Shown: positions 1,185 through 35,656, counted from the stretch's first letter. The stretch: DNA of 40,000 bases from Candidatus Peregrinibacteria bacterium (GCA_018655275.1 JABIJZ010000002.1:195748-235747), one strand, 5' to 3'. A program made the numbers and translations. The notes: generated from the letters alone by a model not told the origin.

Positions 1185-3272
1185 ATGGCTGAAGATTTAA
1201 ATTTCTTGCGTAACATAGGGATCATCGCCCATATCGACGCCGGAAAAACAACTGTAACAGAACGTATCCTTTACTACACAGGAACAACACACAAAATCGG
1301 AGAAACTCACGATGGTGAATCTCAGATGGACTGGATGGAACAAGAAAGAGAAAGGGGTATCACAATTACCTCAGCGGCAACAACATGTTTCTGGAAACCT
1401 TCAAACGGTGACCAAAAATACAGAATCAATATAATCGACACTCCAGGACACGTAGACTTTACAGCAGAAGTAGAACGATCACTCCGTGTGCTAGATGGAG
1501 GAGTCGTTGTTTTCGATGGAGCACAAGGTGTAGAACCACAATCAGAAACAGTATGGAGGCAAGCAGACAAATACGAAGTTCCCCGAATCGCCTTCATTAA
1601 CAAAATGGACAAGATGGGTGGAGACTTCGAAATGAGTATCAAAACTATTTGGGACAGACTTTCGCCAAACGCTATCGCTATCCAACTCCCAATCGGAGCT
1701 GAGAACGACCACAAAGGTGTCATCGATCTTATCGAAAGAAAAGCATACGAATTCGAAGGAACCCTAGGTATAGATATTAAAGAAGTTGAAATCCCAGCAG
1801 ACATGACAGACAAAGTTGAAGAATGGAGAGCAACAATGATCGAAAAAGTTTCAGAATTCGACGACACACTAATGGAAAAATTCGTAAACGGAGAAGAACC
1901 AACAACAGAAGAAATCAAAAAAGGTATCAGAGCAGCAACAATCACAAACCAAATGTATCCAGTAATGTGTGGATCAGCTTTGAAAAACGTTGGTGCACAA
2001 TTGGTACTTGATGCAGCTTGTTGGTATCTTCCATCACCAATGGATCTACCTCCAGTAAAAGGCACAAAACCAAGATCAGAAGAACCTTTAGAAAGAAAGC
2101 TAGTAGACGAAGAACCTTTCTCAGCACTAGCCTTCAAAGTAGCAACTGATCCATTCGTAGGTACACTTACCTACTTCCGAGTTTACTCAGGAACAGTTCA
2201 AGCAGGAAGTTACGCATACAATTCAAACTCAGATACAAAAGAAAGAATGGGACGAATCCTCCAAATGCACGCAAACTCTCGTGAAGAAATCAAAGAGGTA
2301 CATGCTGGAGATATCGCCGCAGTAGTCGGTCTAAAGAAAACAAGAACAGGAGACACTCTCTGCGACCAAGCAAACCAAATCGTACTTGAAAACATCACAT
2401 TCCCTGATCCAGTTATCGCAATCGCAGTTGAGCCAAAAACAAAGGCCGACCAAGAGAAAATGGGAGTCGCCCTTCAAAAACTCGCAGAAGAAGATCCAAC
2501 TTTCCAAGTCAAAACTGACGAAGAAACTGCCCAAGTTATTATCTCAGGAATGGGAGAACTTCACTTGGACATTATCGTTGATCGTATGAAACGTGAGTTC
2601 AAAGTCGAAGCAAACATTGGTAACCCTCAAGTTGCATACAGAGAAACAATCCAAAACGAAGTTGAAATCGAAGAAAAATACTCAAAACAAACTGGTGGTC
2701 GTGGTCAATACGGACATGTATTACTAAAGATCACTCCACAAGAACCAGGAGAAGGATACGAATTCAGCAACTCTATTGTCGGAGGTAAAATTCCAAAGGA
2801 ATATATCCCAGCAGTAGATAAAGGTATCCAAGAAGCAATGACAAGAGGTACCCTCGCAGGATATCCAATGGTAGACATCAAAGCCGAACTATACGACGGT
2901 TCATTCCATGATGTGGATTCATCAGAGATGGCCTTCAAAATCGCAGGTAGCATCGCATTCCAAAACGGATGTAAACAAGCTGGTCCAGTTATACTAGAAC
3001 CAATCATGAGCGTAGAAGTTGTAACACCAGAAGAATATTTCGGAGATGTCATGGGTAACTTGAACTCAAGACGTGGTCAAATCAAAGAGTCTGGAGAAAG
3101 AGGAATGGCTAAATTTATCAAAGCCATGGTGCCTCTAGCAAACATGTTCGGTTACGTCACAGACCTAAGATCTATGACTCAAGGTAGAGCAAGTTCATCA
3201 ATGGAATTTGGTCACTACGAAAAAGTACCATCAAATGTTGCAGAAGAGATAAAGACAAAAAGGAGCACTTAA
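1185..3272 (+). CDS. fusA: translation elongation factor G
   Basis: 695 aa. GTPase motifs [17 protein letters not shown] and NKMD are present, and the gene lies upstream of tuf. Confidence 0.97.
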
Positions 3273-3371: not shown

Positions 3372-4565
3372 ATGGCTGAAGGAGTATTTGACAGATCGAA
3401 GCCACACGTTAACGTAGGTACCATTGGACACGTTGACCACGGTAAGACTACACTTACAGCAGCAATTACAACAGTAGCTGCAAAAAAAATGGGAGGTGCT
3501 AACAAAGCTGTCGCTTTTGATCAAATCGACAATGCTCCCGAAGAGAAAGAACGTGGTATCACTATCGCGACTTCTCACCAAGAGTACGAAACAGAAAAGA
3601 GACACTACGCACACGTAGATTGTCCAGGACATGCCGATTATGTAAAGAACATGATCACAGGTGCTGCGCAAATGGACGGTGCAATCTTGGTAGTATCTGC
3701 AGCAGATGGACCTATGCCACAAACTCGTGAGCACATCCTTCTTGCAAAACAGGTTAACGTACCTTACATCATCGTATTCATGAACAAAATGGATCTTGCT
3801 GATCCAGAAATCGCTGAGCTTTCAGAAATGGAGGTTCGTGAACTTCTTACTAAATATGAATTCCCTGGAGATGATACACCAATCATCAAAGGTTCTGCGC
3901 TTAAAGCGTTGGAAAATCCAGATGATGAAGAAGCTACAAAACCTATCGTTGAACTTCTTGCAGCTCTTGACGATTATATCCCACAACCAGAACGTATTCT
4001 CGACAAACCATTCTTGATGCCAGTTGAAGACGTATTCTCAATCAAAGGACGAGGTACAGTTGCAACAGGTAGAGTAGACCAAGGTATCGTGAACTCAAAC
4101 GACGAAATCGAAATCATCGGTATCAAAGAAACTCGAAAAGTTGTTGTTACTGGTGTTGAGATGTTCCGAAAAACTCTTGACGAAGGTAGAGCTGGAGACA
4201 ACGTTGGACTTCTACTTAGAGGTATCGAACGTGAAGAAATCGAACGTGGACAAGTATGTGCAAAACCTGGATCAATTACTCCACACACTAAGTTCGAATC
4301 TGAAGTTTATATCCTAACAAAGGATGAAGGAGGTCGTCACACTCCATTCTTCAAAGGATACAAACCTCAATTCTACATTCGAACAACTGATGTTACAGGT
4401 AACGTTGAGTTACCAGCTGATGTAGAGATGGTAATGCCAGGAGACAAAGTGAACATGATCGTTACATTGGGAGCGCCTATCGCTCTTGACGAAGGTACTC
4501 GATTCGCTATCCGTGAGGGTGGTCGAACTGTTGGTGCCGGAGTTGTAGCAAAGATTATGGAATAG
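3372..4565 (+). CDS. tuf: translation elongation factor Tu
   Basis: 397 aa with [17 protein letters not shown] and NKMD motifs and full-length EF-Tu-like sequence. Confidence 0.98.
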
Positions 4566-4578
4566 TTATCTTTTATAT

Positions 4579-4798
4579 GCCCTTCAGAGACTGTTTCGGC
4601 CTTGAAGGGCCTTAAGAGAAAATCATTCTCAACAAAAAGACCGTCCCAATGATTTTATTGGCTCGGCCCCAGAAATGGGAAATCCTCGATAGTTACAGGA
4701 AGCAAAACGATCCTGTAACCAAAGTCTCCGACAAGTCGGAGACGCCAAGAACTTTATAGAAACCATATCTATAAACCGAGGATAAATCATAACTCGGT
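4579..4798 (+). promoter_or_regulatory. highly structured tuf-rpsJ spacer, a candidate S10-operon leader
   Basis: At least six stem-loops read by eye: 4579-4610 (8 bp), 4619-4656 (9 bp), 4668-4679 (CCCA-GAAA-TGGG), 4692-4719 (9 bp), 4724-4743 (7-9 bp), 4753-4775 (7 bp) and 4775-4798 (6 bp). Confidence 0.5.
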
Positions 4799-4818
4799 AA
4801 TTTAACTAAAAAACAACC

Positions 4819-5145
4819 ATGGCAGCTAAACAACAAAAAATCAGAATCAGAATCAAAGCCTTCGATCACAAAGTAATCGACGAAACAGCAAAAGTCATCA
4901 TCGACACAGCAGAAAGAACAGGCGCAGTAGTAGCAGGACCAATCCCCCTTCCAACTAAAATCGAGAAATTCACAGTAAACAAATCAACTTTCGTTCACAA
5001 AACAGCTCGTGAACAATTCGAGATTCGAACTCACAAAAGAGTGATCGACATCACAGACGTCGCTCCAAAAACAATCGAATCTCTCTCAAACATCGCTCTT
5101 CCAGCAGGTGTAGAGATCAGCATCAAAATGCTTACTGAGAAATAA
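4819..5145 (+). CDS. rpsJ: 30S ribosomal protein S10
   Basis: 108 aa, begins KIRIRIKAFDHKVIDE.. and ends ..LPAGVEISIK. Position after tuf. Confidence 0.97.
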   Translation: MAAKQQKIRIRIKAFDHKVIDETAKVIIDTAERTGAVVAGPIPLPTKIEKFTVNKSTFVHKTAREQFEIRTHKRVIDITDVAPKTIESLSNIALPAGVEISIKMLTEK

Positions 5146-5169
5146 GACCGCAACCACCACCGGCCCCCA

Positions 5170-5197
5170 TTGACAAAACACACGAAACCGATATAAT
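5170..5197 (+). promoter_or_regulatory. consensus promoter TTGACA-16-TATAAT
   Basis: Both hexamers match the consensus perfectly. Located 25 nt upstream of the ATG at 5223, immediately after the rpsJ stop. Confidence 0.55.
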
Positions 5198-5222
5198 CGT
5201 CTCCTTTTTTAAACACGCAAAA

Positions 5223-6089
5223 ATGATAGAAGGATACGACGCAAAAACCACACTCTTCACTCCAGATCGAGGCGTTAATGGAGTATACAGAATTTACGAC
5301 GTCCTTACACCAAACGCCAGAGAAGATTTTCCAACCTCAGGAATATACGAAAACGAAGAAACAGGCATTATTATTCACCCAGATCAAAAAGGATCCAAAA
5401 TAGCTCCAACCAATGCAGACACAGTCAGGCATGTATCAACCCTGCGCAACATGCCAGGAATAGAAGTCGACTGTCTTCCAATAATGGACAGATGTGAGGC
5501 TGAAGAGTCATATCCAGAAATAAGAGCGTTTTTGGACCTGCTAAGAGCAGATCCCTTGGCAGAGATGACAACCTTCGATATCAACAGAGTCAATTATCTA
5601 ATACACTTCTTAAGAAACAAAACATTAGAAACCGCCGTTGAAACATACCAAACATACGTAGCCGTAATGCTACAATTGGCTGTAAGAAATTTGGCAAAAG
5701 AAAGACAAACAACATTAAGAAACCTTATAATAGGAATAATAGAAAAAGAACTGATACATGATGGATACGAAAAAACACTTACAGCCTTAAACCAAAGAGG
5801 AGAAAGAATAATAGTATTCCCAACAGAAAACGAAAATCCAGACCTCAGAGTAAGAACAAGAACAAATACAGAAGAAACCGCAACAGATATGAACGAAACA
5901 GAGATCGCAGAAAGCGCTTGGCTCCTTAGACTTACAGCAAATATCAGACTGAAATTAAGAGGAGGCATAGCATGGGACGTATTCTTTCCAAAACACCACG
6001 GAAGCCTTAGAGTCATACCAAATTCAACCCAAGACGAACTCACCTTCACCCTGATAGACGTAAGAAAAGAAGAAGAAGACGAAGCCTAA
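5223..6089 (+). CDS. hypothetical protein (288 aa), no recognisable domain
   Basis: Long ORF with genome-typical codon usage and its own promoter. Inserted between rpsJ and rplC. Confidence 0.7.
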   Translation: MIEGYDAKTTLFTPDRGVNGVYRIYDVLTPNAREDFPTSGIYENEETGIIIHPDQKGSKIAPTNADTVRHVSTLRNMPGIEVDCLPIMDRCEAEESYPEIRAFLDLLRADPLAEMTTFDINRVNYLIHFLRNKTLETAVETYQTYVAVMLQLAVRNLAKERQTTLRNLIIGIIEKELIHDGYEKTLTALNQRGERIIVFPTENENPDLRVRTRTNTEETATDMNETEIAESAWLLRLTANIRLKLRGGIAWDVFFPKHHGSLRVIPNSTQDELTFTLIDVRKEEEDEA

Positions 6090-6098
6090 TCTAACAAC

Positions 6099-6135
6099 AA
6101 AAAAAGCCCCCAACCTCTCGGCTAGGAGCTTTTTG
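6099..6135. terminator. possible bidirectional intrinsic terminator between convergent genes
   Basis: An A-run, an imperfect GC-rich hairpin (AGCCCCCAACC / GGCTAGGAGCT, 3 mismatches) and a T-run. Confidence 0.35.
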
Positions 6136-6147
6136 TTCAATATTGTT

Positions 6148-6654
6148 TTATCTATTCAAAGTCGAAGCAATCCTTTCCCAAGCAACCTTACGAGCATCTC
6201 CAACCGAACCTATAATTCCACTACTAGCTGCCAAAGCATCAACCGCTCCATTAACCTTACGAACAGCCAAAGCTTTACCGATAAGACCTCCAACCTTGAG
6301 AGAAACAAGTCTTTCAGCTCCCTCAGGCCGTACAGGATAAGCTTCATCAACAGGTGAAGTTACTCTCTTTGCACCATATCCAGACAAAGAGCTAAGCACA
6401 CCGTGAAAAGCCTCATTAGTCACAACTTGAGCAGAATCAACATCAACACCAGTTGCTTCCACGTACCCCCTCAAAGCATTAGCAAGAGCCCTATATTCAG
6501 GAACTTCAGGTCCAGGAATAGCTTTATACTGAACATGATCTTCCCAATCAGCTCCAGTTGCATCTATAACATCATCATCACTTCCAACAACAGACAATTT
6601 AGTCACAGCACCAGCTGCATCAGCAGCCCCTTTATCTTCAATTCTATCAATCAT
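6148..6654 (-). CDS. small acidic protein, paralog 1 of the 'LRxY..FPVR' triplet
   Basis: ORF 6148..6693. I prefer the ATG at 6654 (MIDRIEDKG..) because its upstream context, TTTAACCATAGAAAT-ATG, matches that of paralog 2. Motifs ALRGYVE and AYPVRPEG. Confidence 0.65.
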   Translation of the reverse strand: MIDRIEDKGAADAAGAVTKLSVVGSDDDVIDATGADWEDHVQYKAIPGPEVPEYRALANALRGYVEATGVDVDSAQVVTNEAFHGVLSSLSGYGAKRVTSPVDEAYPVRPEGAERLVSLKVGGLIGKALAVRKVNGAVDALAASSGIIGSVGDARKVAWERIASTLNR

Positions 6655-6679
6655 ATTTCTATGGTTAAATATTTTATTA

Positions 6680-7102
6680 TTATTTAGATACAACTTCCCT
6701 CAAAATCAAACCTATCCTCCCCCTAATATCAGAAGTTTCTTCATTAGAAACACCCTTCGTCAAATTTGAAAGAGCAAGTCCAAACCGATTCAACACAGCC
6801 GATTCTTCTGACTCCATACTCGCTTCCGGATCCACAGATGATCCTTCAACCACCTCAGGACGTACCGGGAAAAGATCCGTAATAGACCCTTCAGGCCTAC
6901 CACAAATTTCTTCACCCAAAAGCCGAACAATACCTTCAAACGCCAAATTCGCACGAACCTCAGGCCCCAATTCATCAGGGGTTTCACTATCAGCAAAAGA
7001 ATGTTCCATATAGCCTCTCAAAGAATCTGCCAATTCACGAAGACACACATCCTCAAACACTCCATCTCCCTCACTACCTTGTTTTCCCTTGTCTGCACTC
7101 AT
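6680..7102 (-). CDS. small acidic protein, paralog 2 of the triplet
   Basis: ORF 6680..7150. I prefer the ATG at 7102 (MSADKGK..) because it lies downstream of two promoters. Motifs SLRGYME and LFPVRPEV. Confidence 0.65.
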   Translation of the reverse strand: MSADKGKQGSEGDGVFEDVCLRELADSLRGYMEHSFADSETPDELGPEVRANLAFEGIVRLLGEEICGRPEGSITDLFPVRPEVVEGSSVDPEASMESEESAVLNRFGLALSNLTKGVSNEETSDIRGRIGLILREVVSK

Positions 7103-7131
7103 ATTATTATGGTTAAAATTTTCCGGGCACG

Positions 7132-7160
7132 ACTCTAATGAATCGCACAAACTTTGTCAA
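7132..7160 (-). promoter_or_regulatory. promoter TTGACA-17-TAGAGT (minus strand), proximal to paralog 2
   Basis: Read from the reverse complement. Confidence 0.45.
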
Positions 7161-7190
7161 TTTAAAATCACAACAAAGCATAAGAATGTT

Positions 7191-7218
7191 ATTATATACA
7201 CTTTTTCAAAGTTGTCAA
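7191..7218 (-). promoter_or_regulatory. promoter TTGACA-16-TATAAT (minus strand), distal to paralog 2
   Basis: Perfect hexamers on the reverse complement, preceded by GGGG. Confidence 0.5.
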
Positions 7219-7240
7219 CCCCTACCCCCTCACGAACCTA

Positions 7241-7705
7241 CTACATCTCTTTCGTAATAACCTCAGCAAGGACAGCTTCCACCCCACTTCTATAAGAAAC
7301 TGTAAGCAGTTCTGGTTGAGCAGCTCCACTAAACACGGCAGCAGCAAAAAGCACTTTCTTTTTAGCTTCCACTCCCCCTGAAACTGGAGTAGGCGAAGGA
7401 TCAGCACCATCACGAACCGGAAAAGCATCCTCAATAGATACAAAACCTTCAGGCAACGCCTCTCCCATCAATTCAACAATAGAACGATAAGCAAAATCAA
7501 CTCTCCTTTCTATACCTCCGCCAACATCACCATCATTTTCCTCATTTATAACATTTTTTTGCGCCCCAATATAATCCCTCAAAGCACATACAAGCCTCTC
7601 TTGGGGAGAATACGCTCTGTCATTTTCTTCAGCTAGCACAGCTCCTTGGACCAGCGCCAAGCCATAAACTTCCGAAACATCTAGATCACCTTCATTATCA
7701 GCCAT
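7241..7705 (-). CDS. small acidic protein, paralog 3 of the triplet
   Basis: 154 aa with motifs ALRDYIG and AFPVRDGADP. Has its own promoter. Confidence 0.65.
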   Translation of the reverse strand: MADNEGDLDVSEVYGLALVQGAVLAEENDRAYSPQERLVCALRDYIGAQKNVINEENDGDVGGGIERRVDFAYRSIVELMGEALPEGFVSIEDAFPVRDGADPSPTPVSGGVEAKKKVLFAAAVFSGAAQPELLTVSYRSGVEAVLAEVITKEM

Positions 7706-7736
7706 ATTTAATTGATTAAACTATTACAAGAAAATG

Positions 7737-7765
7737 ATTCTAAAGTATTTTTGCAAATTTGTCAA
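7737..7765 (-). promoter_or_regulatory. promoter TTGACA-17-TAGAAT (minus strand) for paralog 3
   Basis: Read from the reverse complement, preceded by GGGGGG. Confidence 0.5.
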
Positions 7766-7819
7766 CCCCCCTAATGAGCCCCACCACAAACAGCCCAAAA
7801 ACTTCAAGAAAAAAAACTC

Positions 7820-7848
7820 TTGACTCCCCTATACCCCTTCTGTATAGT
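7820..7848 (+). promoter_or_regulatory. rplC promoter TTGACT-17-TATAGT
   Basis: Hexamers read directly. The same CTCTTGACTyCCCTAy box occurs at fusA. It predicts an ~80-nt leader containing a 6-bp hairpin (CTTCTG..CAGAAG). Confidence 0.5.
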
Positions 7849-7932
7849 GCAGCAGCAATTGACTCAAGTACGTTAATAGCCTTCTGTTACGGGTTGCCGA
7901 AAATCTGTCAGAAGCACTAACCACTACTCATT

Positions 7933-8514
7933 ATGTCAGGAATACTCGGCAAAAAAATAGGTATGACTAGAATCTTTAAGGAAGATGGTCGCGTGATCCC
8001 AATCACAGTTGTGCAGTGTGAACCAAATGAAATCACACAAATTAAAACAACTGAAAAAGACGGATATCCGGCGATAGTTCTGGGATTTTCCAAATTAAAG
8101 AAACCATCAAAGACAAAGAAATTCTATCATCAAAAAGAGTTCAAAATAGAAGAAGGAGCTGAACATAAGATAGGAGACCAAATTACTTTAGAATCATTCG
8201 AAGAAGTTGAGAAAGCGAGCAAAGTAGTCGCAATCTCAAAAGGTAAAGGATTCCAAGGTGTAATCAAAAGACACAATTTCTCAAGAGGTCCAGAGACACA
8301 CGGTTCTCACCATCATAGAGAACCAGGTTCAATCGGAGCCTGCGCGAAACCAGGAAGAGTAGACAAAGGAAAAAAGATGCCAGGTCATATGGGAACAGAC
8401 AGAATCACATTACAGAACGTTCCTATAGTATATCTAGACACAAAGAACAATTTAATTGGATTGGCTGGCCCAATCCCAGGTGGAACTAAAGGACTAGTAA
8501 TCATTCAAAAATAA
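7933..8514 (+). CDS. rplC: 50S ribosomal protein L3
   Basis: 193 aa, begins MSGILGKKIGMTRIF and contains KGKGFQGVIKRHNF. Confidence 0.95.
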   Translation: MSGILGKKIGMTRIFKEDGRVIPITVVQCEPNEITQIKTTEKDGYPAIVLGFSKLKKPSKTKKFYHQKEFKIEEGAEHKIGDQITLESFEEVEKASKVVAISKGKGFQGVIKRHNFSRGPETHGSHHHREPGSIGACAKPGRVDKGKKMPGHMGTDRITLQNVPIVYLDTKNNLIGLAGPIPGGTKGLVIIQK

Positions 8515-24236: not shown

Positions 24237-24329
24237 TTAAACTAATGTTAATCAATCCAAGAAAGTATTATATAACTTTTTTCAAAGAAATCAAGCTTCA
24301 AACAAAGAGATTTGTTATATAATCCAGCC

Positions 24330-25262
24330 ATGAGTTTCATCAAAGACTTCCAAAAACTGTATTGGGCCTCTCCTGTTGTAAAAAACTGGACCAGGCAAAG
24401 CGAAAACTGCGAATACGGAGATATTTGTGTAGTCTCAAAAAACTGCTTCCTATGTTTCAACAGCTCAAACCTAGAAAACTGCTACTATTGTTATTCATCG
24501 CGCAAAAACTACGACTGCAACGGCCTAATGTTCTGCGAACACTGCACCATGTGCTACGAATGCATGGACTGTCACAGATGCAACAACTCCGACCACTGCC
24601 AAGACTGCGACAACTGCGCAAACTGCCAATATTGCTACGACTGCAAATCCTGTAACGACTGTTTTGGCTGCGCAAGCTTAATGCACAAAAAACACCACAT
24701 CTTCAACAAAAAACACTCAAAAGAAGAATATGAAGAACGCCTCAAAGAAATCCAAACCTGGCCCCAAGAAAAAATCGAAGAAGAATTTGAAAAAGTAAAA
24801 ATCTCAAAGCCACGATGCTACATGCACCAAACAAAATGCACAAACTGCATCGGAGACTACGTCGAACACAGCAAAAACTGCTACTGGATCTTTGACAGCC
24901 GCGACTGCGAAGACAGCTTCTACATCATGGAAGCCTGCCTAGAACACGGCTGCAAAGACTGCGCAGACTGCGGCCCCATCGCAAACAGCTTCGAACAATG
25001 CTACGACGTCTGCTTCGCAGGCTACCTCAACAACTGCCACCACATTTATTGGGCAGATTATATCTCAGATTGCGATTGGTGCACTAGCATTTGGGACTGC
25101 AGGAAGTGCTTTGGTTGTATTTACATGAAGAATAAAGAATACTGTATCTTAAATAAAAAATACTCAGAAAAAGAGTATGAGGAACTCACAAAAAAATACA
25201 AAAAGGAATTGTTAGACGCAGGTATTCAGGATCTCTACTCCTTAATCCATTACAAATGCTAG
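24330..25262 (+). CDS. cysteine-ladder protein, short form (about 310 aa)
   Basis: About 41 Cys by hand count, with runs of Cys every third residue and two modules each ending in the cap motif. I prefer the ATG at 24330 over the track's TTG at 24312. Confidence 0.8.
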   Translation: MSFIKDFQKLYWASPVVKNWTRQSENCEYGDICVVSKNCFLCFNSSNLENCYYCYSSRKNYDCNGLMFCEHCTMCYECMDCHRCNNSDHCQDCDNCANCQYCYDCKSCNDCFGCASLMHKKHHIFNKKHSKEEYEERLKEIQTWPQEKIEEEFEKVKISKPRCYMHQTKCTNCIGDYVEHSKNCYWIFDSRDCEDSFYIMEACLEHGCKDCADCGPIANSFEQCYDVCFAGYLNNCHHIYWADYISDCDWCTSIWDCRKCFGCIYMKNKEYCILNKKYSEKEYEELTKKYKKELLDAGIQDLYSLIHYKC

Positions 25263-25641: not shown

Positions 25642-27285
25642 ATGACAACCAATAATTGTAAAACCTGCTCAGCCAAATACGACATCACCCCTGAAGACGA
25701 GAAATTTTACGCAAAACTAGACCTTCCATCCCCCACTCTCTGCCCAATCTGCCGAAACAAACGCAGAATGGCTTGGCGCAACGACCGAAGCTTCTACATA
25801 CGAAAATCAGATAAATCAGATGAACAATTCATTTCAATATACCCAGAGAAAACTCCTTTCCCAGTATGGAAACCCGCAGAATGGTACGCAGAAGACTGGG
25901 ATCCCCGCGATTACGGCCAAGATTACGACTTCAACAAACCATTTTTCGAACAATGGAACGAACTCCTCCAAAAAGTCCCACGCCTAGGCATCGACATCGT
26001 TCACTGCGAGAATTCAGAATACTGCAACTACTGCGGAGACGACAAAAACTGCTACCTCGACATCGCCGGCGAAGCCAACGAAGATTGCTATTTCAATTTA
26101 TTCACAAAATACTCACGCGACTGCGCAGACAACACCTTTGTATACAAATCAGACCTCTGCTACGAATCTCTTCACTGCCACACCTGTCACAACGTCCGCT
26201 ACTCAATGCACATGGAAGGATGCGCAGACTGCGCATTCTGCTTTGACTGCAAAAGCTGCCAAAACTGCCTCTTCTCATACAACCTCCGCCACAAAAAATA
26301 CTACATTTTCAATGAAGAACACACAAAAGAAGAATACGAAAAGAAACTCAAAGAACTCAACCTCGGCTCATACAGCAACACACAAATAAGCCTCCAAATT
26401 TGGGAAGACAAAGTCATCAACAAAGCCATCCACCGCGACCAATACAACGTCCAAACCGAGGAATGCTCAGGCAACAACATCAAAAACTCAAAAAACTGCC
26501 GCGAAACATACAACGCAACAAACTGCTGGGACTCAAACTTCTTGTACGACGTCCTAGACACCAAAGATTGCTACGACCTCAACTATTCACTATACAAACC
26601 CGAAGTCGCCGCAGAGCTCATTTCTACACTCAACATGAGATACTCAGCCTGCAACATGGCCTCTCACTACTGCCACAACACATTCTACTGCGACATGGTC
26701 AACAACTCAGACTACTTATTCGGCTGCATCTCGATAAATCGCGGCCATTACTGCATCCTGAACAAACAATACACCGAAGAAGAATACAAAGAACTTTTCC
26801 CAAAAATCGTCACCCACATGCGCCAGACTGGAGAATGGGGCGAATTCTTCCCAGCCAAATACTCCCCTCCCGGATACAACGAAACCATCGCCCAAGAATA
26901 CTTCCCCTTAACCGAAGAACAAGCAAAAAAAGAAGGCTTCAATTGGAAACCAAAAGACAAAACCCCACCAAAGCCCCAGACATACAAAATTCCAAACAAC
27001 ATCAAAGACGTTCCAAAAGAAATCACAAAAGAAATCCTCGCCTGCGAAACCTGCGGCAAAAACTTCCGCCTCATCGAACAAGAACTCAAATTTTACCGCC
27101 GCCAAGAGATCCCAGTCCCCCATACTTGCCCAGACTGCCGCCACGAAGCCCGCCACCGCCTCCGCAACCCACGCATACTCAACCAACACAAATGCGGAAA
27201 ATGCTCAGCCCCAATCACAACCACCTACCACAAAGAACTCCCAAATATTTACTGTGAGAAGTGTTATTTGGAGAGTGTGTATTAG
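25642..27285 (+). CDS. cysteine-ladder protein, long form with N- and C-terminal Zn-ribbon caps (547 aa)
   Basis: N-terminus reads CKTC..FYAKLDLPSPTLCPICRNKRR. Two Cys-ladder modules follow. C-terminus reads CETC..FYRRQEIPVPHTCPDCRHEAR..CGKC..CEKC. Confidence 0.85.
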   Translation: MTTNNCKTCSAKYDITPEDEKFYAKLDLPSPTLCPICRNKRRMAWRNDRSFYIRKSDKSDEQFISIYPEKTPFPVWKPAEWYAEDWDPRDYGQDYDFNKPFFEQWNELLQKVPRLGIDIVHCENSEYCNYCGDDKNCYLDIAGEANEDCYFNLFTKYSRDCADNTFVYKSDLCYESLHCHTCHNVRYSMHMEGCADCAFCFDCKSCQNCLFSYNLRHKKYYIFNEEHTKEEYEKKLKELNLGSYSNTQISLQIWEDKVINKAIHRDQYNVQTEECSGNNIKNSKNCRETYNATNCWDSNFLYDVLDTKDCYDLNYSLYKPEVAAELISTLNMRYSACNMASHYCHNTFYCDMVNNSDYLFGCISINRGHYCILNKQYTEEEYKELFPKIVTHMRQTGEWGEFFPAKYSPPGYNETIAQEYFPLTEEQAKKEGFNWKPKDKTPPKPQTYKIPNNIKDVPKEITKEILACETCGKNFRLIEQELKFYRRQEIPVPHTCPDCRHEARHRLRNPRILNQHKCGKCSAPITTTYHKELPNIYCEKCYLESVY

Positions 27286-27911
27286 GTTCGATCAACATTC
27301 ATATTCCTGTAATCAATCTTCAGCTTGCCCCCCATATTCATAAACATCAGATAGTAAGACGTCCCGACAATCTTCATACCATAAAATGGTGACTCTCCCT
27401 TAAGAAAAGCCTCAAGACTCTCTCTACGAATAACTTTCTCATAAAAATTCTCAGGCAACATCGAATCATCATCAGTCTTAGTCAATTCACCATGCACAAC
27501 ATATTTAAAAACATTTTTTAAAACAGCTTCAGTCAACTCAACACTCTCAGCCTCTACAGCACGCCTCAAAGGTATATAATGTCGATTCAAAGCCGGATAC
27601 AGTCTCTTAAGTTTACTCCCTTCCTCAGCCACTCCCCTAACCATACCAGCAACTCTAATACTCTCAGGTGTAATTTCATCTTTTTGTTTTTGTTCACCAA
27701 TAGCCCATTCACCAAGCCCCACTCTTATATTCCTAACAACATTAACAACCCATTCAGGATCATTTGTCCTTCTACTACTGCCATCCCCAGAAACATATTT
27801 ATCATCCAAGCAACCAATAACAATCCTTGCCGCATCATCATGATATTGATCATCAGGTTTCTTCCCATCTGCCCCCACCGGAAACGCCCTTTCTTTTTGC
27901 CCTTCAGCCAT
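27282..27911 (-). CDS. hypothetical protein (209 aa)
   Basis: ORF 27282..28070, for which I prefer the ATG at 27911 (MAEGQKERAFPVGADG..). Its stop overlaps the convergent Cys-rich gene's stop. Confidence 0.6.
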   Translation of the reverse strand: MAEGQKERAFPVGADGKKPDDQYHDDAARIVIGCLDDKYVSGDGSSRRTNDPEWVVNVVRNIRVGLGEWAIGEQKQKDEITPESIRVAGMVRGVAEEGSKLKRLYPALNRHYIPLRRAVEAESVELTEAVLKNVFKYVVHGELTKTDDDSMLPENFYEKVIRRESLEAFLKGESPFYGMKIVGTSYYLMFMNMGGKLKIDYRNMNVDRT

Positions 27912-28000
27912 AATAAAGTGTTTAATTTTAGGGCTAATTAAATCACATACAAAAAGATAAAACAATGTGATTTTCAGAAGATTTGTTGTAAAATTGGCCC

Positions 28001-28936
28001 ATGAACGACCCAAAACAAATCGCCGAGAACTTCGTCCAACTCTACCGAGAATTAGTTCATCGCGAACCACACATTTCAGTCCACGTATGGCTATCCGACA
28101 ATTCCGACTATTGCGACCAAATCGACCGCTGCAAAAACTGCTATCTCGTTTTCAACAGTCTCCAATCCGAAGACTGCATGTATATGTACGACTCAAGATG
28201 GAGCAAAAACTGCAGCGACATATCTTACTGCAATCATTCAGAACTCTGCTACGACTCTCTCGATCTCGAAAAATGCTACAACTGCGACCACTGCCAAGAC
28301 TGCACAAACTCAAATGACTGCCAATACTCATACGATCTTCGAAACTGCAACAACTGCCTCGGATGCGCAGGCTTGAGACACAAAAACTACCACATTTTCA
28401 ACAAACCTTACTCAAAAAAAGAATACGAAGAGCTCACAAAAAAACTCCTTAAAAATCCAGGGAAAATCGAAAAACAGCTCGAAAAGCTTTGCCTCGAAAT
28501 CCCTCACGTCGCTCTCCACACCCAAAACACAGAAAACTGCTTCGGGAACTACGTAGTAAACTCCAAAAACTCATACTGCATCTTCAAAACACACAATCTC
28601 GAAGATTGCATGTATATGCACGACACCCAAAGAGAAAAAGATTGCATGGACTGTTTTGTAGGAAACGAATCAGAACTTGCTTACGGCTGCACCGAAAACT
28701 CCAAAATCTACAATTGTAATTTTTCATACTGGTGCGCCAACAACATCGATTGCGAATACATGATGTATAGCTTCAGCTGCAAGAACTGTTTCGGATGTTT
28801 CAACCTCAAACACAAAGAATATCGCATTCTCAACAAACAATACACGAAAGAAGAATACGAAAAACTCCTCCCAGAAATCAAAAAATCACTCCGAGAAAAA
28901 GGCCAATACATGAACTTCCTACCAGACGTAATGTAA
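28001..28936 (+). CDS. cysteine-ladder protein, short form (311 aa)
   Basis: Alignable with 24330..25262 and has the same two cap motifs (CLGCAGLRHKNYHIFNKPYSKKEYEEL and CFGCFNLKHKEYRILNKQYTKEEYEKL). Confidence 0.8.
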   Translation: MNDPKQIAENFVQLYRELVHREPHISVHVWLSDNSDYCDQIDRCKNCYLVFNSLQSEDCMYMYDSRWSKNCSDISYCNHSELCYDSLDLEKCYNCDHCQDCTNSNDCQYSYDLRNCNNCLGCAGLRHKNYHIFNKPYSKKEYEELTKKLLKNPGKIEKQLEKLCLEIPHVALHTQNTENCFGNYVVNSKNSYCIFKTHNLEDCMYMHDTQREKDCMDCFVGNESELAYGCTENSKIYNCNFSYWCANNIDCEYMMYSFSCKNCFGCFNLKHKEYRILNKQYTKEEYEKLLPEIKKSLREKGQYMNFLPDVM

Positions 28937-29647
28937 TTATTTCTCCCAATTTGGGTTTTCCGTCTCAACCCTCAACCTCCAAGCCCCCCAAGGAACATCT
29001 TCATAATCAACAAACGCCCAATCAACCCTCTCCATCCCGTCATGCCCCAAACATTCAGCCATTTTTGGCGAAAGATCCAAACCAGCCCCAAAATTCACAA
29101 GATTCTTAGGCTTTTTCGCACGTCCAAAAACGTAATCAAAATCATCTTCAACAAACGGCCCAACATCCTCTACTTGCCCATAACAAACATTCCTGTCCAA
29201 TCGAACAGCCACCCACCTGTTTTTCACAAAAGAATAATACGGGTTTGCAACAACCATCCTTTCATCATACCAAGGAATATCTGAGACATCATCCCTACCC
29301 AAATCATTGTAAGGAACTGCCACATAATAAGGATTGGAACTATCCGCATAAGGATACTCCCAAGCAGAAGGCACATTCGAAATTCCTCCGTTGTAATTCT
29401 CTTCATCAAAAGAAGCCTCTTCTCCAAACCAAAAAACAGTGCTCATAATATCTTTATGCAATTTGTAGGCAGGAGCTTTTTGCACCACACGTTTAACCAC
29501 ACTTCTCTCAACACTTTTCTCCACCCTCTCTACTCGCGAAGATCCACCCAAACGCACACGCGCCAAAGCTTCTCCTGGCACATACCCCCCAAACAAAGAG
29601 CCAGCTATCAGAACCAACACCAAATTAATTTTAAAAATCTTTTTCAT
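28937..29647 (-). CDS. secreted protein with a tentative RlpA/expansin-like double-psi beta-barrel domain
   Basis: I prefer the ATG at 29647, giving signal peptide MKKIFKINLVLVLIAGSLFGG. The C-terminal ..VAVRLDRNVCYGQVEDVGPF..GLDLSPKMAECLG.. resembles DPBB motifs. Confidence 0.55.
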   Translation of the reverse strand: MKKIFKINLVLVLIAGSLFGGYVPGEALARVRLGGSSRVERVEKSVERSVVKRVVQKAPAYKLHKDIMSTVFWFGEEASFDEENYNGGISNVPSAWEYPYADSSNPYYVAVPYNDLGRDDVSDIPWYDERMVVANPYYSFVKNRWVAVRLDRNVCYGQVEDVGPFVEDDFDYVFGRAKKPKNLVNFGAGLDLSPKMAECLGHDGMERVDWAFVDYEDVPWGAWRLRVETENPNWEK

Positions 29648-29723
29648 GCCAAGACATCCTAACCTATTGTTCGTTCTCTGGCTACAAAACCTCTCCCTCA
29701 CCTCCCCACTCCTACACAACAGG

Positions 29724-29752
29724 TTGACATTTTTCAACTTTTATACTACAAT
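29724..29752 (+). promoter_or_regulatory. promoter TTGACA-17-TACAAT
   Basis: Hexamers read directly, 21 nt upstream of the ATG at 29773. Confidence 0.5.
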
Positions 29753-32700: not shown

Positions 32701-33231
32701 CCAATAGAATTCACTCAAGACACCACCCCCTCAACAGAGCATCTAGCCGGCAAACAAGCAACAGTCACATTCACAAGAGGAGAATACTCAGAAGTAGAAG
32801 GCTATGAAGATGTCGACGACATGCAACCACTCGCATTCGAATGCAAAGAAGATGAACAAGGAGAACTAGTCACAGACCCATCCCGACCAATAAGCTTTTC
32901 ATTGCTAGACGGAGCAGTAATCACAGCCCAACCTCACTTCGAAGTTAACCTAAAAAGAGAACAAGACCTCGAAACCCTCCGCAGACACCTACAAAGATCG
33001 GCAAGAGAAACAACATCAGAATTTAGTCCAACACAAACAACCACAAACGAAAAAGAACGACACAAGTTCACAACAAACCCATCACACATCTACACTCACC
33101 AAGTAGATATCCCAGCTGTAAACGCCCAAGGTACAAAAACTCAATGGCTTGAAAACGACGTAGGAGCAGCATTATTTGCGCCAATACTAGCAACACACGC
33201 AAAAAAAACCTTAAACCAGCTAGCAACCTAA
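29773..33231 (+). CDS. 1152-aa multidomain protein: interrupted SAM-methyltransferase-like region, PAS-like region, coiled coil, and C-terminal class I glutamine-amidotransferase-like region
   Basis: Motifs: HMDIGCGNAVVG (aa ~174), AVWIGDHQNRTIFVNRKFCEMTG (aa ~339), a heptad-like Glu/Lys/Ala-rich stretch (aa ~430-550), LGDFDEF..AKRLAPGGIIVCDG (aa ~565-619), and IYIIGGS..AYATCYGSESILEAFG..AQPHFEV (aa ~903-1057). Confidence 0.8.
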   Translation: MSSKETGRWEPSQSQMVTRVWTPDEVEEQTAPEGEALRTLSTIYSRRIKIMAAEKDALPGKPRAKRLQQLIGKVKHDIATKRRAGDSHENRIQYIKESAEIKEIQRLYLELGIAEMIVLGDWSVSRTSEIPEAMGIDSGPHETAPFATLESEILYFYEEHGVVDASKLGDKLIHMDIGCGNAVVGQSLRTDNLTSPFGNNRTLPDYWGEVGFADRMYFSINDLIASFIKEEHRENPALHEFINTVATLLTRRLYFGKDKLDPTLAKLPSDPNQIVKIFKKLHFFIKNFSTLLNPDKKTMVDVEFLSDEASQLTPECRELVEEYFYGPEIREKIENSTSAVWIGDHQNRTIFVNRKFCEMTGKTKEELKGKTKEELNLWRATKGNLGDPKREGTLKLATGFNANVNLHSPRLGPKAVIITMPGETEEQHLSQTLITSRERWQTKVEEYEKTASQEFLDKYFKPEFHGSTKKLDEQIAKLDEKLAEAERIRIEIHEAAKAAYATFTQPITPDAQKTIESERTAVNQRRTAWEDTRQQLTDERRHLIDQRDLLNLASHVTIHPHNVILGDFDEFGEIIPDQPLINLATLFRSSSHATDTQYTKLTETTAKRLAPGGIIVCDGKKESYTRFERLEELEALQKKLGTNYKISAIVDTQGAIRSILIERILVTKENKKAFFSDDHKEEALIPDCSLIPISDVQTHLPRLAFKNRIIKALKELIIDPRVKAAPEDKKGDTLFQSRLLFKGIHEIIDAVVEKTENLDEAILQIAQQSDLVRQQLDASKQGTSLMHPDFRITTYPRKTKTLSEPTNETRSFRAQSLPRNLDIPNLNHPAIEYHKRIAINCLLKLRLFTGKSPIKVIEFEGCFTNTPMITTLRNLLGQNFEDLVEIETVSPNNPAPNIDDNTIYIIGGSIKSVNDPEGKQFTQNFSQKLLERIQEGANIRAYATCYGSESILEAFGNMRDNLTVETTPGALQFGAFPIEFTQDTTPSTEHLAGKQATVTFTRGEYSEVEGYEDVDDMQPLAFECKEDEQGELVTDPSRPISFSLLDGAVITAQPHFEVNLKREQDLETLRRHLQRSARETTSEFSPTQTTTNEKERHKFTTNPSHIYTHQVDIPAVNAQGTKTQWLENDVGAALFAPILATHAKKTLNQLAT

Positions 33232-34484
33232 ACCATCGCCGCAAGCGACAACTCTATAAGCTTCGCATATTTTTCAATAAATTCATTCTCAAAAATCTCC
33301 AACTTCTTTTCAGGACTAGTATATAGAGACAAAGTTCCAACCAATTTAGACTTGAAAACCAAAGGAATCAAAAGCAAAGAACAGAGATTGTTTTTATTAG
33401 CCAAAAACTTCGACTGATACTTTGGATCCTTCATAACATCAATGATTTTCACAGACCCCTTCTGAACAAAAGCCTTCTCAGCCAAGCCCCCTTTGTATTT
33501 AATACTAGCTTTGCCTTCCCAATCATTTGCCAAACCAAAAGAAGAAAGAAGATCCAACGAATCTCGTTTTTGATTATATAAGCGCAAAACGCACGCATCC
33601 ACTCTCGTCAGCATAATTATAGAACTAACAACGAAATCAGCCATACTCTTCAAATCTCCAGAGCTCCTACAAACATCCAAAAGCTCAAACACATAATCCA
33701 TCTGCCTACGGATCACACCAAATTTATTATAAGCCTCTTTCATTTTCCTATACTTCAACTCCACATCCTCTTCAAACTTAACCTGATTCGTAATATCCCT
33801 AGCAATAATCAGATAAAACGAAACCTTCTTCTTACCTTCAATAAAGATAGGCGTCAATGTCGCAGCAACCAAAATCTTTTTCTTATTTTTGTGCTTCCCC
33901 TCAAGTTCAATATTGTAAATAACTTTAGAACTACTAATAATTTCCCCAACATCCCCTCGAGAGAAAATCCTGCTTATTTTCGCACCAACCATTTCCACCC
34001 CCTTGTATCCAAAAATTATTTTAGCCCCTTTATTCCAAGACTTCACCTTCCCATCCGGATCAAAAGTAATAACTGCATTCGTTGAATATTGAATAGCTTG
34101 ACTGAGAACTTTTTCTTCCTCCTCCTTTTTTTTCAAGTCAGTGAGGTCAGTCATTATACCAATAGTCCCACCATCCGGAAGAGGCGCCCCACTCAAAAGA
34201 ACAGGCACAATCTTCCCATTCTTCGTCAACAAATCCCCTTCATAACTAGAACTAACCCCTTTTTTACGCTCAGAAGTATTCACATTTCTCACTCTCTTAA
34301 CACTTTCCTCAGTCCAAAAATCATAAGACTCCCTCCCTATCATATCCGGCAACTTATAACCAACCATCTTACAAAACTTCGGATTAGCATAAACAGTCCT
34401 TTCATTTTTATCACCAACCCAAACACCTTCATTCATCGTATCAATCAAAGTTTTATAAATCTTACTGTCTGCCAATTTTTTCAT
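33228..34484 (-). CDS. PAS-PAS-GAF sensor protein without a recognisable output domain
   Basis: 418 aa from the ATG at 34484 (the track ORF extends to 34517). Contains two PAS-like blocks (..GVWVGDKNERTVYANPKFCKMVG.. and ..NAVITFDPDGKVKSWNKGAKIIFGY..) and a C-terminal GAF-like region. Confidence 0.8.
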   Translation of the reverse strand: MKKLADSKIYKTLIDTMNEGVWVGDKNERTVYANPKFCKMVGYKLPDMIGRESYDFWTEESVKRVRNVNTSERKKGVSSSYEGDLLTKNGKIVPVLLSGAPLPDGGTIGIMTDLTDLKKKEEEEKVLSQAIQYSTNAVITFDPDGKVKSWNKGAKIIFGYKGVEMVGAKISRIFSRGDVGEIISSSKVIYNIELEGKHKNKKKILVAATLTPIFIEGKKKVSFYLIIARDITNQVKFEEDVELKYRKMKEAYNKFGVIRRQMDYVFELLDVCRSSGDLKSMADFVVSSIIMLTRVDACVLRLYNQKRDSLDLLSSFGLANDWEGKASIKYKGGLAEKAFVQKGSVKIIDVMKDPKYQSKFLANKNNLCSLLLIPLVFKSKLVGTLSLYTSPEKKLEIFENEFIEKYAKLIELSLAAMV

Positions 34485-35610
34485 ATATTTTTTTACGAGT
34501 ATGTTTACTATGAACATGATCCAACCACTCTCTCTTCACACAATCTTTCTCAGATTTTTTGATCTCAACACAATCTCCACTCATCAACCTATAATATATA
34601 TCCTGCTTCCCCCCATTTACAATAGCTGATCGAGCTTTGTGCCCCAAATCAGAATGCAAATGATAAGCAAAATCAACAATAGTAGAACCATTTTCCAATT
34701 TGAACAAATCTCCTTTTGGAGTAAAAACATACACATCCTTCAACTCTTCATCCCCTTGCGAAAGATCCGAGAAATGTTCAACCAATTTCTTTTCCTTTTC
34801 CGTAACCATCTTCGACTTTTTCCCCTTTGCATACAACCAATGAGCAGCAAATCCCTTTTCCGCAAAATCATCCATCGCCCTCGTCCGAATCTGTACCTCA
34901 ATAGGAATATCCAACTTTTCAACAACTTCAATCAATCCAGTATGCAAACTCTGATACCCATTGATCTTCGGAATAGTCACATAATCCTTGAAATAATCCA
35001 CAACCGGATAAAACCGATCATGAAACAAATTCAAAACCTCAAAACACTCATCCACCGAATTCGACTCTAGAACAATCCTGAACGCAAAAATATCATTCAA
35101 TTTAATAGCACTTTTCTTCATTTTTTTTCGAAGTTTTTTGTTGATACTATAAAGATTCTTGTATCGTCCCTTCACCTCACACTCATACCCCTCCTCCTTC
35201 AAAAACACCCGAAAAACTCTCAAAACTTTATTCACAAGACTTTTAGAATTATTTTTATAAACCTTCATCATCTCATCAACATCCTTATACCTTTCATCAT
35301 CAGTAATTTTGAAACAAAGATCATCTAGCAAACTTTTTTCATTAAAAAACCCAAATCTCTCGCATAACTGCGAAAGAACCAACAAATATCTATTCGCCAT
35401 TTTTTTCTCCAATTTCTGATCTTCACACAAACCCAACTGAGTCCTGAAAACTTTGACGAATTCATAAAACACCTCTGGAGATTTAGAAAAACTAGAGAAA
35501 AAATACTGAGAAATCGACTCCAGATTTTTCGCAGACTCATTAACATTCACCAACAACCCGAGCCATCGCTCAAATTCTTCTTTACCTAAATGGATTTTCT
35601 TTAAAACCAT
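34462..35610 (-). CDS. RelA/SpoT-homolog (p)ppGpp synthetase with TGS domain, lacking the catalytic half of the HD hydrolase domain
   Basis: 382 aa. Synthetase motifs GRYKNLYSINKKL, DIFAFRIVL, PKINGYQSLHT, EVQIRTRAMDDFAEKGFAAHWLY. TGS motif VYVFTPKGDLFKLENGSTIVDFAYHLHSDLGHK. The N-terminal ~140 aa has no HD dyad. Confidence 0.85.
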   Translation of the reverse strand: MVLKKIHLGKEEFERWLGLLVNVNESAKNLESISQYFFSSFSKSPEVFYEFVKVFRTQLGLCEDQKLEKKMANRYLLVLSQLCERFGFFNEKSLLDDLCFKITDDERYKDVDEMMKVYKNNSKSLVNKVLRVFRVFLKEEGYECEVKGRYKNLYSINKKLRKKMKKSAIKLNDIFAFRIVLESNSVDECFEVLNLFHDRFYPVVDYFKDYVTIPKINGYQSLHTGLIEVVEKLDIPIEVQIRTRAMDDFAEKGFAAHWLYAKGKKSKMVTEKEKKLVEHFSDLSQGDEELKDVYVFTPKGDLFKLENGSTIVDFAYHLHSDLGHKARSAIVNGGKQDIYYRLMSGDCVEIKKSEKDCVKREWLDHVHSKHTRKKIYEKIGRQ

Positions 35611-35656
35611 CGCAAAACAATTCTAACACATGCCAGCCCATACACAAAAAACCACT

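Follow-up and report, generated by a model that had tools for sequence, protein, structure and literature searches.

Four orphan genes at the rpsJ-rplC junction of a Candidatus Peregrinibacteria genome probably occupy an older, separately promoted boundary

Introduction

The ribosomal protein (r-protein) supercluster is the most conserved gene order in bacteria, and in its canonical form rplC follows rpsJ after tens of nucleotides (nt) within a single transcription unit. A 40,000-nt stretch from a Candidatus Peregrinibacteria bacterium (GCA_018655275.1 JABIJZ010000002.1:195748-235747), to which we refer as the window, departs from this arrangement: fusA, tuf and rpsJ are followed by 2,787 bp holding four open reading frames (ORFs), three of them antisense, and a predicted terminator, and only then by rplC and the usual S10, spc and alpha genes. 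How did the first junction of the S10 operon come to be split, and where do the genes inside it come from? An earlier note on this sequence had described the 2.8 kb split, which the measured interval bears out, and had taken it for an insert of orphan genes accompanied by a new rplC promoter. We consider it likely instead that the four genes are lineage-specific native orphan cargo at an older, separately promoted rpsJ/rplC boundary that is variably filled in the class Peribacteria (Peregrinibacteria).

ORF1 runs in the direction of rpsJ, and ORF2, ORF3 and ORF4 lie on the opposite strand (Table 1). The bounds of ORF2-4 use ATG starts, as in two public annotations, and public copies of the four proteins carry the locus tags HOE67_00985 to HOE67_01000.

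Results

The rpsJ-rplC junction is widened in most sampled relatives

We surveyed the surroundings of homologues of ribosomal protein L3, the product of rplC, in 80 loci from genomes and 80 from metagenomes, and measured the distance from the rpsJ stop to the rplC start. This gap was 4-250 bp in about 66 loci from other phyla and about 86 bp in one Gracilibacteria locus. Among the loci labelled Peribacteria or Peregrinibacteria, which we treat as the relatives, 11 have both genes on one contig, with gaps of 102-4,379 bp that exceed 180 bp in eight cases. The earlier note had suggested comparing synteny with the closest genomes, and this comparison finds the junction widened in most relatives, with contents that differ by lineage. 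The note had also allowed that the insert might prove common and annotated with a known function in relatives; the split is indeed common in the clade, but the ORF1-4 cargo is unique to this species and unannotated.

The contents of the gaps are diverse. Locus L003 (L3 73% identical, gap 543 bp) holds no credible gene, while L004 (69%, 1,234 bp) and L005 (67%, 1,167 bp) each carry a Na/Ca-exchanger family membrane protein (Na_Ca_ex, PF01699). An ABC exporter is found in L006 (63%, 4,379 bp), together with a TrmB-family regulator on the opposite strand and a Cys-rich ORF of 503 amino acids (aa), and also in L089 (63%, 2,204 bp), and L008 (57%, 748 bp) has two small ORFs. The gaps are about 185, 111 and 102 bp in L086, L088 and L007 (L3 68%, 62% and 60%). 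For L013 and L019 (both L3 50%), rpsJ was not found upstream, where a 1,537-aa protein (8 kb searched) or lysS (2.7 kb searched) stands instead.

In L085, the nearest relative by L3 (76%) and represented by a short contig, a - strand promoter (240-211, 10 of 12 consensus positions) stands back to back with the rplC promoter (264-292), and a - strand ORF of at least 57 aa (within 1-240) runs off the contig end; this is the divergent-promoter layout of ORF4 and rplC in the window, with a different gene. The ORF was tried as a relative of ORF2-4 and rejected as unrelated (hhalign E 0.59). L003 is the closest genome relative; 21 nt beyond its rpsJ it has a TTGACA-17-GAAAAT promoter (7479-7507), similar to the ORF1 promoter and at the same offset. 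It is followed by 343 nt without a credible ORF (7508-7850), which fold at -115.8 kcal/mol, compared with -80.0 +/- 4.8 for shuffles (z -7.4). Rfam, tRNA and tmRNA searches of this gap found nothing, it resembles neither the window nor any surveyed locus, and its 343-nt segment is a candidate for a novel structured RNA at the rpsJ-rplC junction.

A separate observation concerns the Gracilibacteria locus L017 (5020-7560), where rpsJ and rplC are adjacent and tuf and rpsJ are about 2.5 kb apart, with three - strand ORFs under translation table 11. Gracilibacteria are known to recode UGA, and these table 11 ORFs may be wrong. The stretch has the appearance of a similar invasion, at the adjacent boundary.

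The rplC promoter and leader are shared by relatives that lack ORF1-4

DNA similarity between the interval and the relatives is confined to its last ~110 nt, that is, to the rplC promoter and leader; we found no traces of ORF1-4 in the relatives' gaps, and no paralogues in the rest of the window. A promoter of the form TTGACTnCCC...TCTGTATAkT upstream of rplC is common to the window, L085, L003, L004 and L005, as are a leader of ~85-110 nt (7849-7932 here) and a (U)UAACCUCUAC motif just before the rplC start codon. A TTGAC-type promoter also precedes rplC in the more distant L006, L007, L013, L019, L086 and L089-L091.

Folding each sequence separately predicted a leader hairpin independently in six loci: at 7882-7913 in the window, 327-357 in L085, 7936-7968 in L003, 5173-5205 in L004, 7933-7965 in L005 and 5941-5970 in L088. 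The inner stem and loop are conserved (GGGUUnnCCGAAAAUCU), and the loop region retains the motif GGGUUGCCGAAAAUCU. The outer stem varies yet remains complementary, being CUUCUG/CAGAAG here and AAGCA/UGCUU, UCCUU/AAGGA, CUUUGAAA/UUUCAAAG and CUUGAG/CUCAAG in relatives. With a covariance model trained on the hairpins of L004 and L005, the site upstream of rplC was the top + strand match in all six loci, and in the window 7882-7913 was the best site of the whole 40 kb. In the leader alignment, 93.8% of cells are paired, compared with 76% in shuffles and 38-58% in slid controls, and seven of the 12 pairs have changed on both sides. RNAalifold returned no structure from a plain MAFFT alignment of the leaders; that alignment was out of register and was superseded by the per-sequence folds and the covariance-model alignment. 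No Rfam family was found between 4500 and 8000 at E<=1, besides chance miRNA-type matches. The rplC leader thus shows the conserved 5' untranslated structure with covariation that marks r-protein leaders, albeit in a small, model-fitted alignment, and it is a candidate for a new, Peribacteria-specific r-protein regulatory leader.

Since relatives without the ORF1-4 cargo share the conserved rplC promoter and leader, these two appear to be older than that cargo, and the rplC promoter is not likely to be a repair that followed an insertion. The earlier description of this promoter as new is accordingly not upheld, because promoter and structured leader recur in related Peribacteria whatever adjoins them upstream. 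Its claim that rplC is transcribed separately from rpsJ fares well: rplC almost certainly starts its own transcript, and such separate transcription appears to be a feature of the Peribacteria clade.

The interval is dense in consensus promoters and has a strand-biased predicted terminator

All five promoters that the earlier note had placed in the interval were found at those positions (Table 1). The interval contains seven sites matching at least 10 of the 12 consensus positions, compared with 0.67 expected from dinucleotide shuffles, and three sites matching at least 11, compared with 0.06. Only two sites in the 40 kb match all 12, both inside the rpsJ-rplC interval, and the remaining sites with at least 11 matches lie upstream of fusA and of a gene for a 1,152-aa protein, which suggests that the organism uses canonical sigma-70 promoters for strongly expressed genes.

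A hairpin at 6101-6134 had been proposed as a bidirectional terminator. The hairpin exists and is strong as - strand RNA (-24.7 kcal/mol, z -5.3), but it is weak as + strand RNA (-9.8 kcal/mol, z -1.3); it is therefore predicted to be an intrinsic terminator that closes the - strand unit. The folding scan found no terminator hairpin between rpsJ and ORF1, so that the supposed insulation of ORF1 from rpsJ does not hold. The - strand genes diverge from rplC, with back to back promoters 55 nt apart. ORF2 starts 25 nt after the ORF3 stop, and the two are probably co-transcribed.

ORF1-4 resemble resident genes, and ORF2-4 are paralogues

Third codon positions across the whole window follow strand to an extreme degree: on the + strand, A3 exceeds T3 and C3 exceeds G3 in every gene of either orientation, and - strand genes are the mirror image of + strand genes, with T3 ~0.45 and C3 ~0.05 (examples in Table 1). 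ORF1 matches the + pattern and ORF2-4 match the - pattern. The leading strand is usually G/T-rich, and by that rule the r-protein genes here would sit on the lagging strand. A comparable G/C strand disparity has been described in other genomes of the candidate phyla radiation (CPR) (PMC7143001).

Measured against the synonymous codon preferences that the other - strand genes show, ORF2-4 reach 0.18-0.32 in the annotated frame and are negative in all five other frames, while resident - strand genes score 0.15-0.27 in a leave-one-out comparison. ORF1 scores 0.19 with + strand preferences, within the resident range. In all four ORFs, the GC content of the codon positions declines in the order GC1>GC2>GC3, and their overall GC (0.40-0.45) is at the neighbours' level. 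Neither composition nor codon usage shows the deviation from the host that would be expected of a genomic island.

At the protein level, ORF2 matches ORF3 (E 8e-9) and ORF3 matches ORF4 (E 1e-6); the three proteins are 22-34% identical and have LRGY and FPVRP motifs in common. Their upstream regions are mutually alignable. A repeat (D4) links 7202-7222 with 7749-7769 at 90% identity, such that the -35 region of the distal ORF3 promoter copies the ORF4 promoter, and a second repeat (D2) links 6648-6674 with 7096-7122 at 81%. ORF2-4 are thus diverged tandem duplicates, whose promoter and start-codon context were duplicated with the genes. The frame-specific codon usage, the GC pattern and the paralogy with duplicated promoters together indicate that these are real, resident genes and not freshly imported ones. 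The notion of a recent insert is further contradicted by the third-position skews and synonymous codon usage of ORF1-4, which match those of resident genes on the same strand.

Searches for mobile-element signatures agree with the earlier note, which had seen none. There is no integrase or transposase domain in ORF1-4 (Pfam, NCBIfam, PHROGs) and no tRNA or tmRNA in the window (ARAGORN). The repeat searches turned up just short chance matches and the paralogous internal repeats; they found no direct or inverted repeats at the flanks, and neither a target duplication nor terminal inverted repeats.

ORF1-4 are orphans

The orphan status claimed for the four genes survived cluster, HMMER, domain, structure-database and viral searches. 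In a word-indexed search of 5.8 billion clusters, ORF1 and the ORF2-4 profile found only themselves, and a full HMMER pass of the profile over 1.84 billion representatives returned only the same three proteins. Nothing significant was found in Pfam, NCBIfam, PHROGs or PADLOC, the Pfam match to DUF4778 (E 0.14) being at chance level, or among PDB sequences, where two chains gave E 0.14 and 0.6. In PADLOC, Pfam and NCBIfam, the non-significant DUF4778 was the sole match at E<=1, so that no known defence or toxin-antitoxin family was found, and two scans of viral contigs yielded no relatives of the interval proteins.

AlphaFold2 models are of low confidence, with a predicted local distance difference test (pLDDT) score of 37 for ORF1 and of 48 for ORF4, which was modelled from a three-sequence alignment and is all-helical. 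A Foldseek search with the ORF4 model against the PDB gave helical-bundle noise at E>1 and was disregarded. The isoelectric points (pI) of the four proteins are 4.2-4.9, and no signal peptide or hydrophobic segment was obvious on reading the sequences. They are small and acidic, and are predicted to be helical and cytoplasmic. In one CPR genome, a function could be predicted for 48% of genes (PMC7143001), and since hypothetical proteins are common in CPR genomes, these orphans are of limited interest for now.

The arrangement recurs in independent assemblies

The source is a metagenome-assembled genome (MAG), and we therefore checked the contig itself. Other assemblies, located by exact-protein look-ups, reproduce the arrangement in GCA_018650345.1, ERZ4200993, ERZ4200989 and ERZ27237593, one from NCBI and three from the European Nucleotide Archive (ENA), and derive from at least three different samples. 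They match the window without gaps at 99.95-99.99% identity, with 1-6 mismatches over 3-14 kb. The NCBI contig (L001) covers both junctions, L002 covers the rpsJ side through ORF4, and L083 and L084 reach from the rplC side into ORF1. Inside the interval, the four assemblies differ by two substitutions, both nonsynonymous and both in low-coverage contigs. The earlier note had named a chimera at 5146-5222 or 7706-7932 as a concern, and four independent assemblies exclude it.

Gene order around the interval

Between tuf and rpsJ lies a spacer of 253 nt (4566-4818) that folds into multiple hairpins, with a minimum free energy of -76.6 kcal/mol compared with -45.3 +/- 4.8 for shuffles (z -6.5). 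Both ends of this spacer are conserved in L003. It has no Rfam match, and the consensus scan found no + strand promoter-like site in it, which suggests that rpsJ is probably the tail of a fusA-tuf-rpsJ transcript. The spacer may serve as a leader for rpsJ or as a processing element.

Upstream, fusA is not preceded by rpsL-rpsG here, whereas the order in L003 is rpoC-rpsL-rpsG-fusA; with the loss of rpsL-rpsG before fusA, the r-protein supercluster is broken at a second place in this species. The region in front of fusA (1-1184) starts with a two-gene pair (84-242 and 239-511) that, judged by eye, has the look of a RelE/ParE-type toxin-antitoxin system, followed by 670 nt without a convincing gene that carry two promoters matching 11 of 12 positions (695-723 and 1095-1122).

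Downstream of the r-protein genes, several Cys-rich ORFs with 28-41 Cys each and an unusually high GC3 of 0.52-0.58 are clustered (Table 1). The Cys-rich ORF in the rpsJ-rplC gap of L006 (3322-4833) has no Pfam match.

Table 1. Genes, predicted promoters and other features of the window. Promoters are given as -35 and -10 elements with the spacer length between them and the number of matching consensus positions.
Feature	Position	Strand	Details
fusA	1185-3272	+	
tuf	3372-4565	+	
rpsJ	4819-5145	+	Ribosomal protein S10, 108 aa; PF00338, E 3.4e-33, full-length match
ORF1 promoter	5170-5197	+	TTGACA-16-TATAAT, 12/12; 25 nt upstream of ORF1 start
ORF1	5223-6089	+	288 aa; acidic, pI 4.9; orphan; codirectional with rpsJ
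ORF2	6148-6654	-	168 aa; acidic orphan; paralogue of ORF3
ORF3	6680-7102	-	140 aa; acidic orphan; middle member of the paralogue trio
ORF3 proximal promoter	7160-7132	-	TTGACA-17-TAGAGT, 10/12; aligns with the ORF4 promoter
ORF3 distal promoter	7218-7191	-	TTGACA-16-TATAAT, 12/12
ORF4	7241-7705	-	154 aa; acidic, pI 4.2; orphan; low-confidence all-helical prediction
ORF4 promoter	7765-7737	-	TTGACA-17-TAGAAT, 11/12; back to back with the rplC promoter
rplC promoter	7820-7848	+	TTGACT-17-TATAGT, 10/12
rplC	7933-8514	+	Ribosomal protein L3; opening gene of the downstream r-protein unit
Example genes for the strand skew	27282-28070, 28937-29737, 33228-37270		Set against + strand genes
Cys-rich ORFs	24312-25262, 25642-27285, 28001-28936, 35657-37270	-	

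Discussion

A transcription model for the split junction

These data are consistent with a model in which the textbook S10 operon would be two transcription units in Peribacteria. There, rpsJ would be the end of a fusA-tuf-rpsJ unit, which in this species would start at the two strong promoters in front of fusA, and rplC and the genes downstream would start at their own conserved promoter and structured leader. The boundary between the two units would itself be older than its cargo, and it would tolerate extra DNA because no transcript must cross it. Different lineages have filled this site with different content, which here amounts to four native, species-specific genes. ORF1 would be expressed from its perfect promoter and probably, in addition, through transcripts that run on from rpsJ, which is possible because there is no hairpin after rpsJ. 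ORF4 would be transcribed from its own promoter, and ORF3 and ORF2 from the tandem ORF3 promoters, the trio having arisen from a promoter-plus-gene module that was tandemly duplicated and then diverged. The antisense unit would run away from the rplC promoter and end at the 6101-6134 hairpin. The earlier note had pictured the antisense genes as facing the flow of the operon; they diverge from rplC and would converge only on the fusA-tuf-rpsJ-ORF1 flow, behind the hairpin and with ORF1 as a buffer.

Several points weigh against this interpretation. The transcript boundaries and expression levels at the locus are deduced from sequence, the former from consensus scans and folding. The gaps of L007, L088 and L086 are short, and L088 lacks a clear promoter; the boundary may therefore be leaky, or not ancestral in the strict sense. 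The alignment behind the covariation has only seven rows, one of them the reverse strand of a palindromic match, and it was fitted to the model. The sampled relatives (L3 at most 76% identical, DNA ~73-83%) are too distant to show when and how ORF1-4 arose. The explanation is also silent on the roles of the four proteins.

Alternative origins and roles

The alternative that survives best, although we regard it as unlikely, is that ORF1-4 are young genes, born de novo or diverged beyond recognition, which arose from transcribed non-coding spacer and expanded by tandem duplication. No homologues were found among ~15 billion proteins, and in the sister lineage L003 the same place is taken up by a promoter and, after it, non-coding sequence. 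The other small or unrelated orphan ORFs of L008 and L085 at this site, the joint duplication of promoter and gene, and the low AlphaFold confidence would also fit such an origin. However, the paralogues are just 22-34% identical, which implies a long or very fast divergence, and ORFs of 140-288 aa with well-adapted codon usage are atypical of very young genes. Nor do they resemble the L003 spacer, and the sampling of close relatives is too thin to separate de novo birth from loss elsewhere. A wider form of the same idea, to which we attach similarly low confidence, makes the rpsJ/rplC boundary a nursery for new genes and RNAs, with ORF1-4 being de novo or extremely fast-evolved and not imported. 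An open, promoter-rich spacer beside the most transcribed genes would then have given rise to the ~340-nt structured RNA of L003, the small orphan ORFs of L008 and L085, and ORF1-4.

It is still less probable that the orphan proteins are lineage-specific accessory factors of the ribosome or of translation, kept beside r-protein genes for matched expression. They are encoded within the r-protein supercluster from promoters as strong as those before fusA, read-through from rpsJ into ORF1 is possible, and they are acidic, as partners of basic r-proteins or of rRNA-binding surfaces might be. Yet none of them has a homologue in any relative although the ribosome is shared, three of the four genes lie on the other strand and have promoters of their own, and no domain or fold evidence was found. 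Moreover, the site is occupied by transporters and regulators in relatives, which shows that it does not select for translation functions.

A recent horizontal insertion of a foreign cassette or mobile remnant into an intact S10 operon, with a new rplC promoter evolving afterwards, seems equally implausible and is already largely refuted. It would account for the lack of ORF1-4 relatives in the closest sampled genomes and for the density of strong promoters, as imported self-sufficient modules can be promoter-rich. It is opposed by the lack of an integrase, transposase, tRNA, target-site duplication or terminal inverted repeats, by codon usage and strand-specific third-position skews that are indistinguishable from those of resident genes, and by the lack of phage, defence-system or viral-contig matches, as well as by the conservation of the rplC promoter and leader in relatives without this cargo. 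Finally, an assembly or binning artefact, with the contig chimeric at a junction, can be given practically no weight, as no evidence for one was found and the junctions recur in four assemblies, gap-free and with 1-6 mismatches.

Significance

Our preferred interpretation, of native cargo at an older boundary, describes a CPR class in which the first S10 junction is widened in most sampled members and rplC has a dedicated promoter and leader, and would imply that even the S10 operon can be re-partitioned. The Peribacteria junctions would form a natural series for models in which operon clusters decay by invasion followed by separation, and the conserved hairpin of the rplC leader can be tested as a candidate new r-protein regulatory RNA. 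The variable spacer also calls for caution in using rpsJ-rplC contiguity as a check of MAG assembly quality.

Comparison with known systems

Like genomic islands and mobile elements, the interval is a lineage-specific block of genes with its own promoters that interrupts a conserved synteny. Unlike them, it is not accompanied by integrase, transposase, tRNA, repeat or compositional signatures, and the locus fails every mobile-element and defence-cassette test.

In cyanobacteria and plastids, rpsJ lies with the str operon (rpsL-rpsG-fusA-tufA-rpsJ) and rplC opens a separate cluster. The window is similar in that rpsJ follows tuf without a promoter-like site between them and rplC opens its own unit, but here the two units are just 2.8 kb apart and rpsL-rpsG is gone from before fusA.

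In Escherichia coli, the S10 operon is a single L4-regulated unit with an L4-responsive leader upstream of rpsJ (PMC3616713). The window keeps the order of the genes from rplC to rpsQ, and a structured 5' leader likewise precedes a multi-gene r-protein unit. However, rpsJ is the first gene of the unit in E. coli and the leader stands before it, whereas in the window rpsJ stands apart and rplC is preceded by a leader that is shorter and of another kind. The Rfam search of 4500-8000 found no L4-responsive S10 leader upstream of rpsJ, where there is a structured but unrelated spacer.

The closest parallel is the model in which a few genes invade the region between r-protein operons, after which the operons can drift apart (PMC8046335; PMC6735719). 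In that sequence of events, a relaxation of selection comes between invasion and disconnection (PMC8046335). As in the cases described by Brandis (PMC8046335), a few unrelated genes lie here between apparently separately promoted r-protein units, and the cargo differs between related lineages, in some of which (L013 and L019) rpsJ was not found upstream of rplC, as in full disconnection. The published cases concern boundaries between named operons of Gammaproteobacteria and Bacilli, such as str/S10, whereas the boundary here falls inside the E. coli-type S10 operon, between its first and second genes, and its cargo consists of orphan genes, three of them antisense. The arrangement is thus real yet only moderately unusual, and it is not a new kind of system but resembles a known mode of operon separation at a different position.

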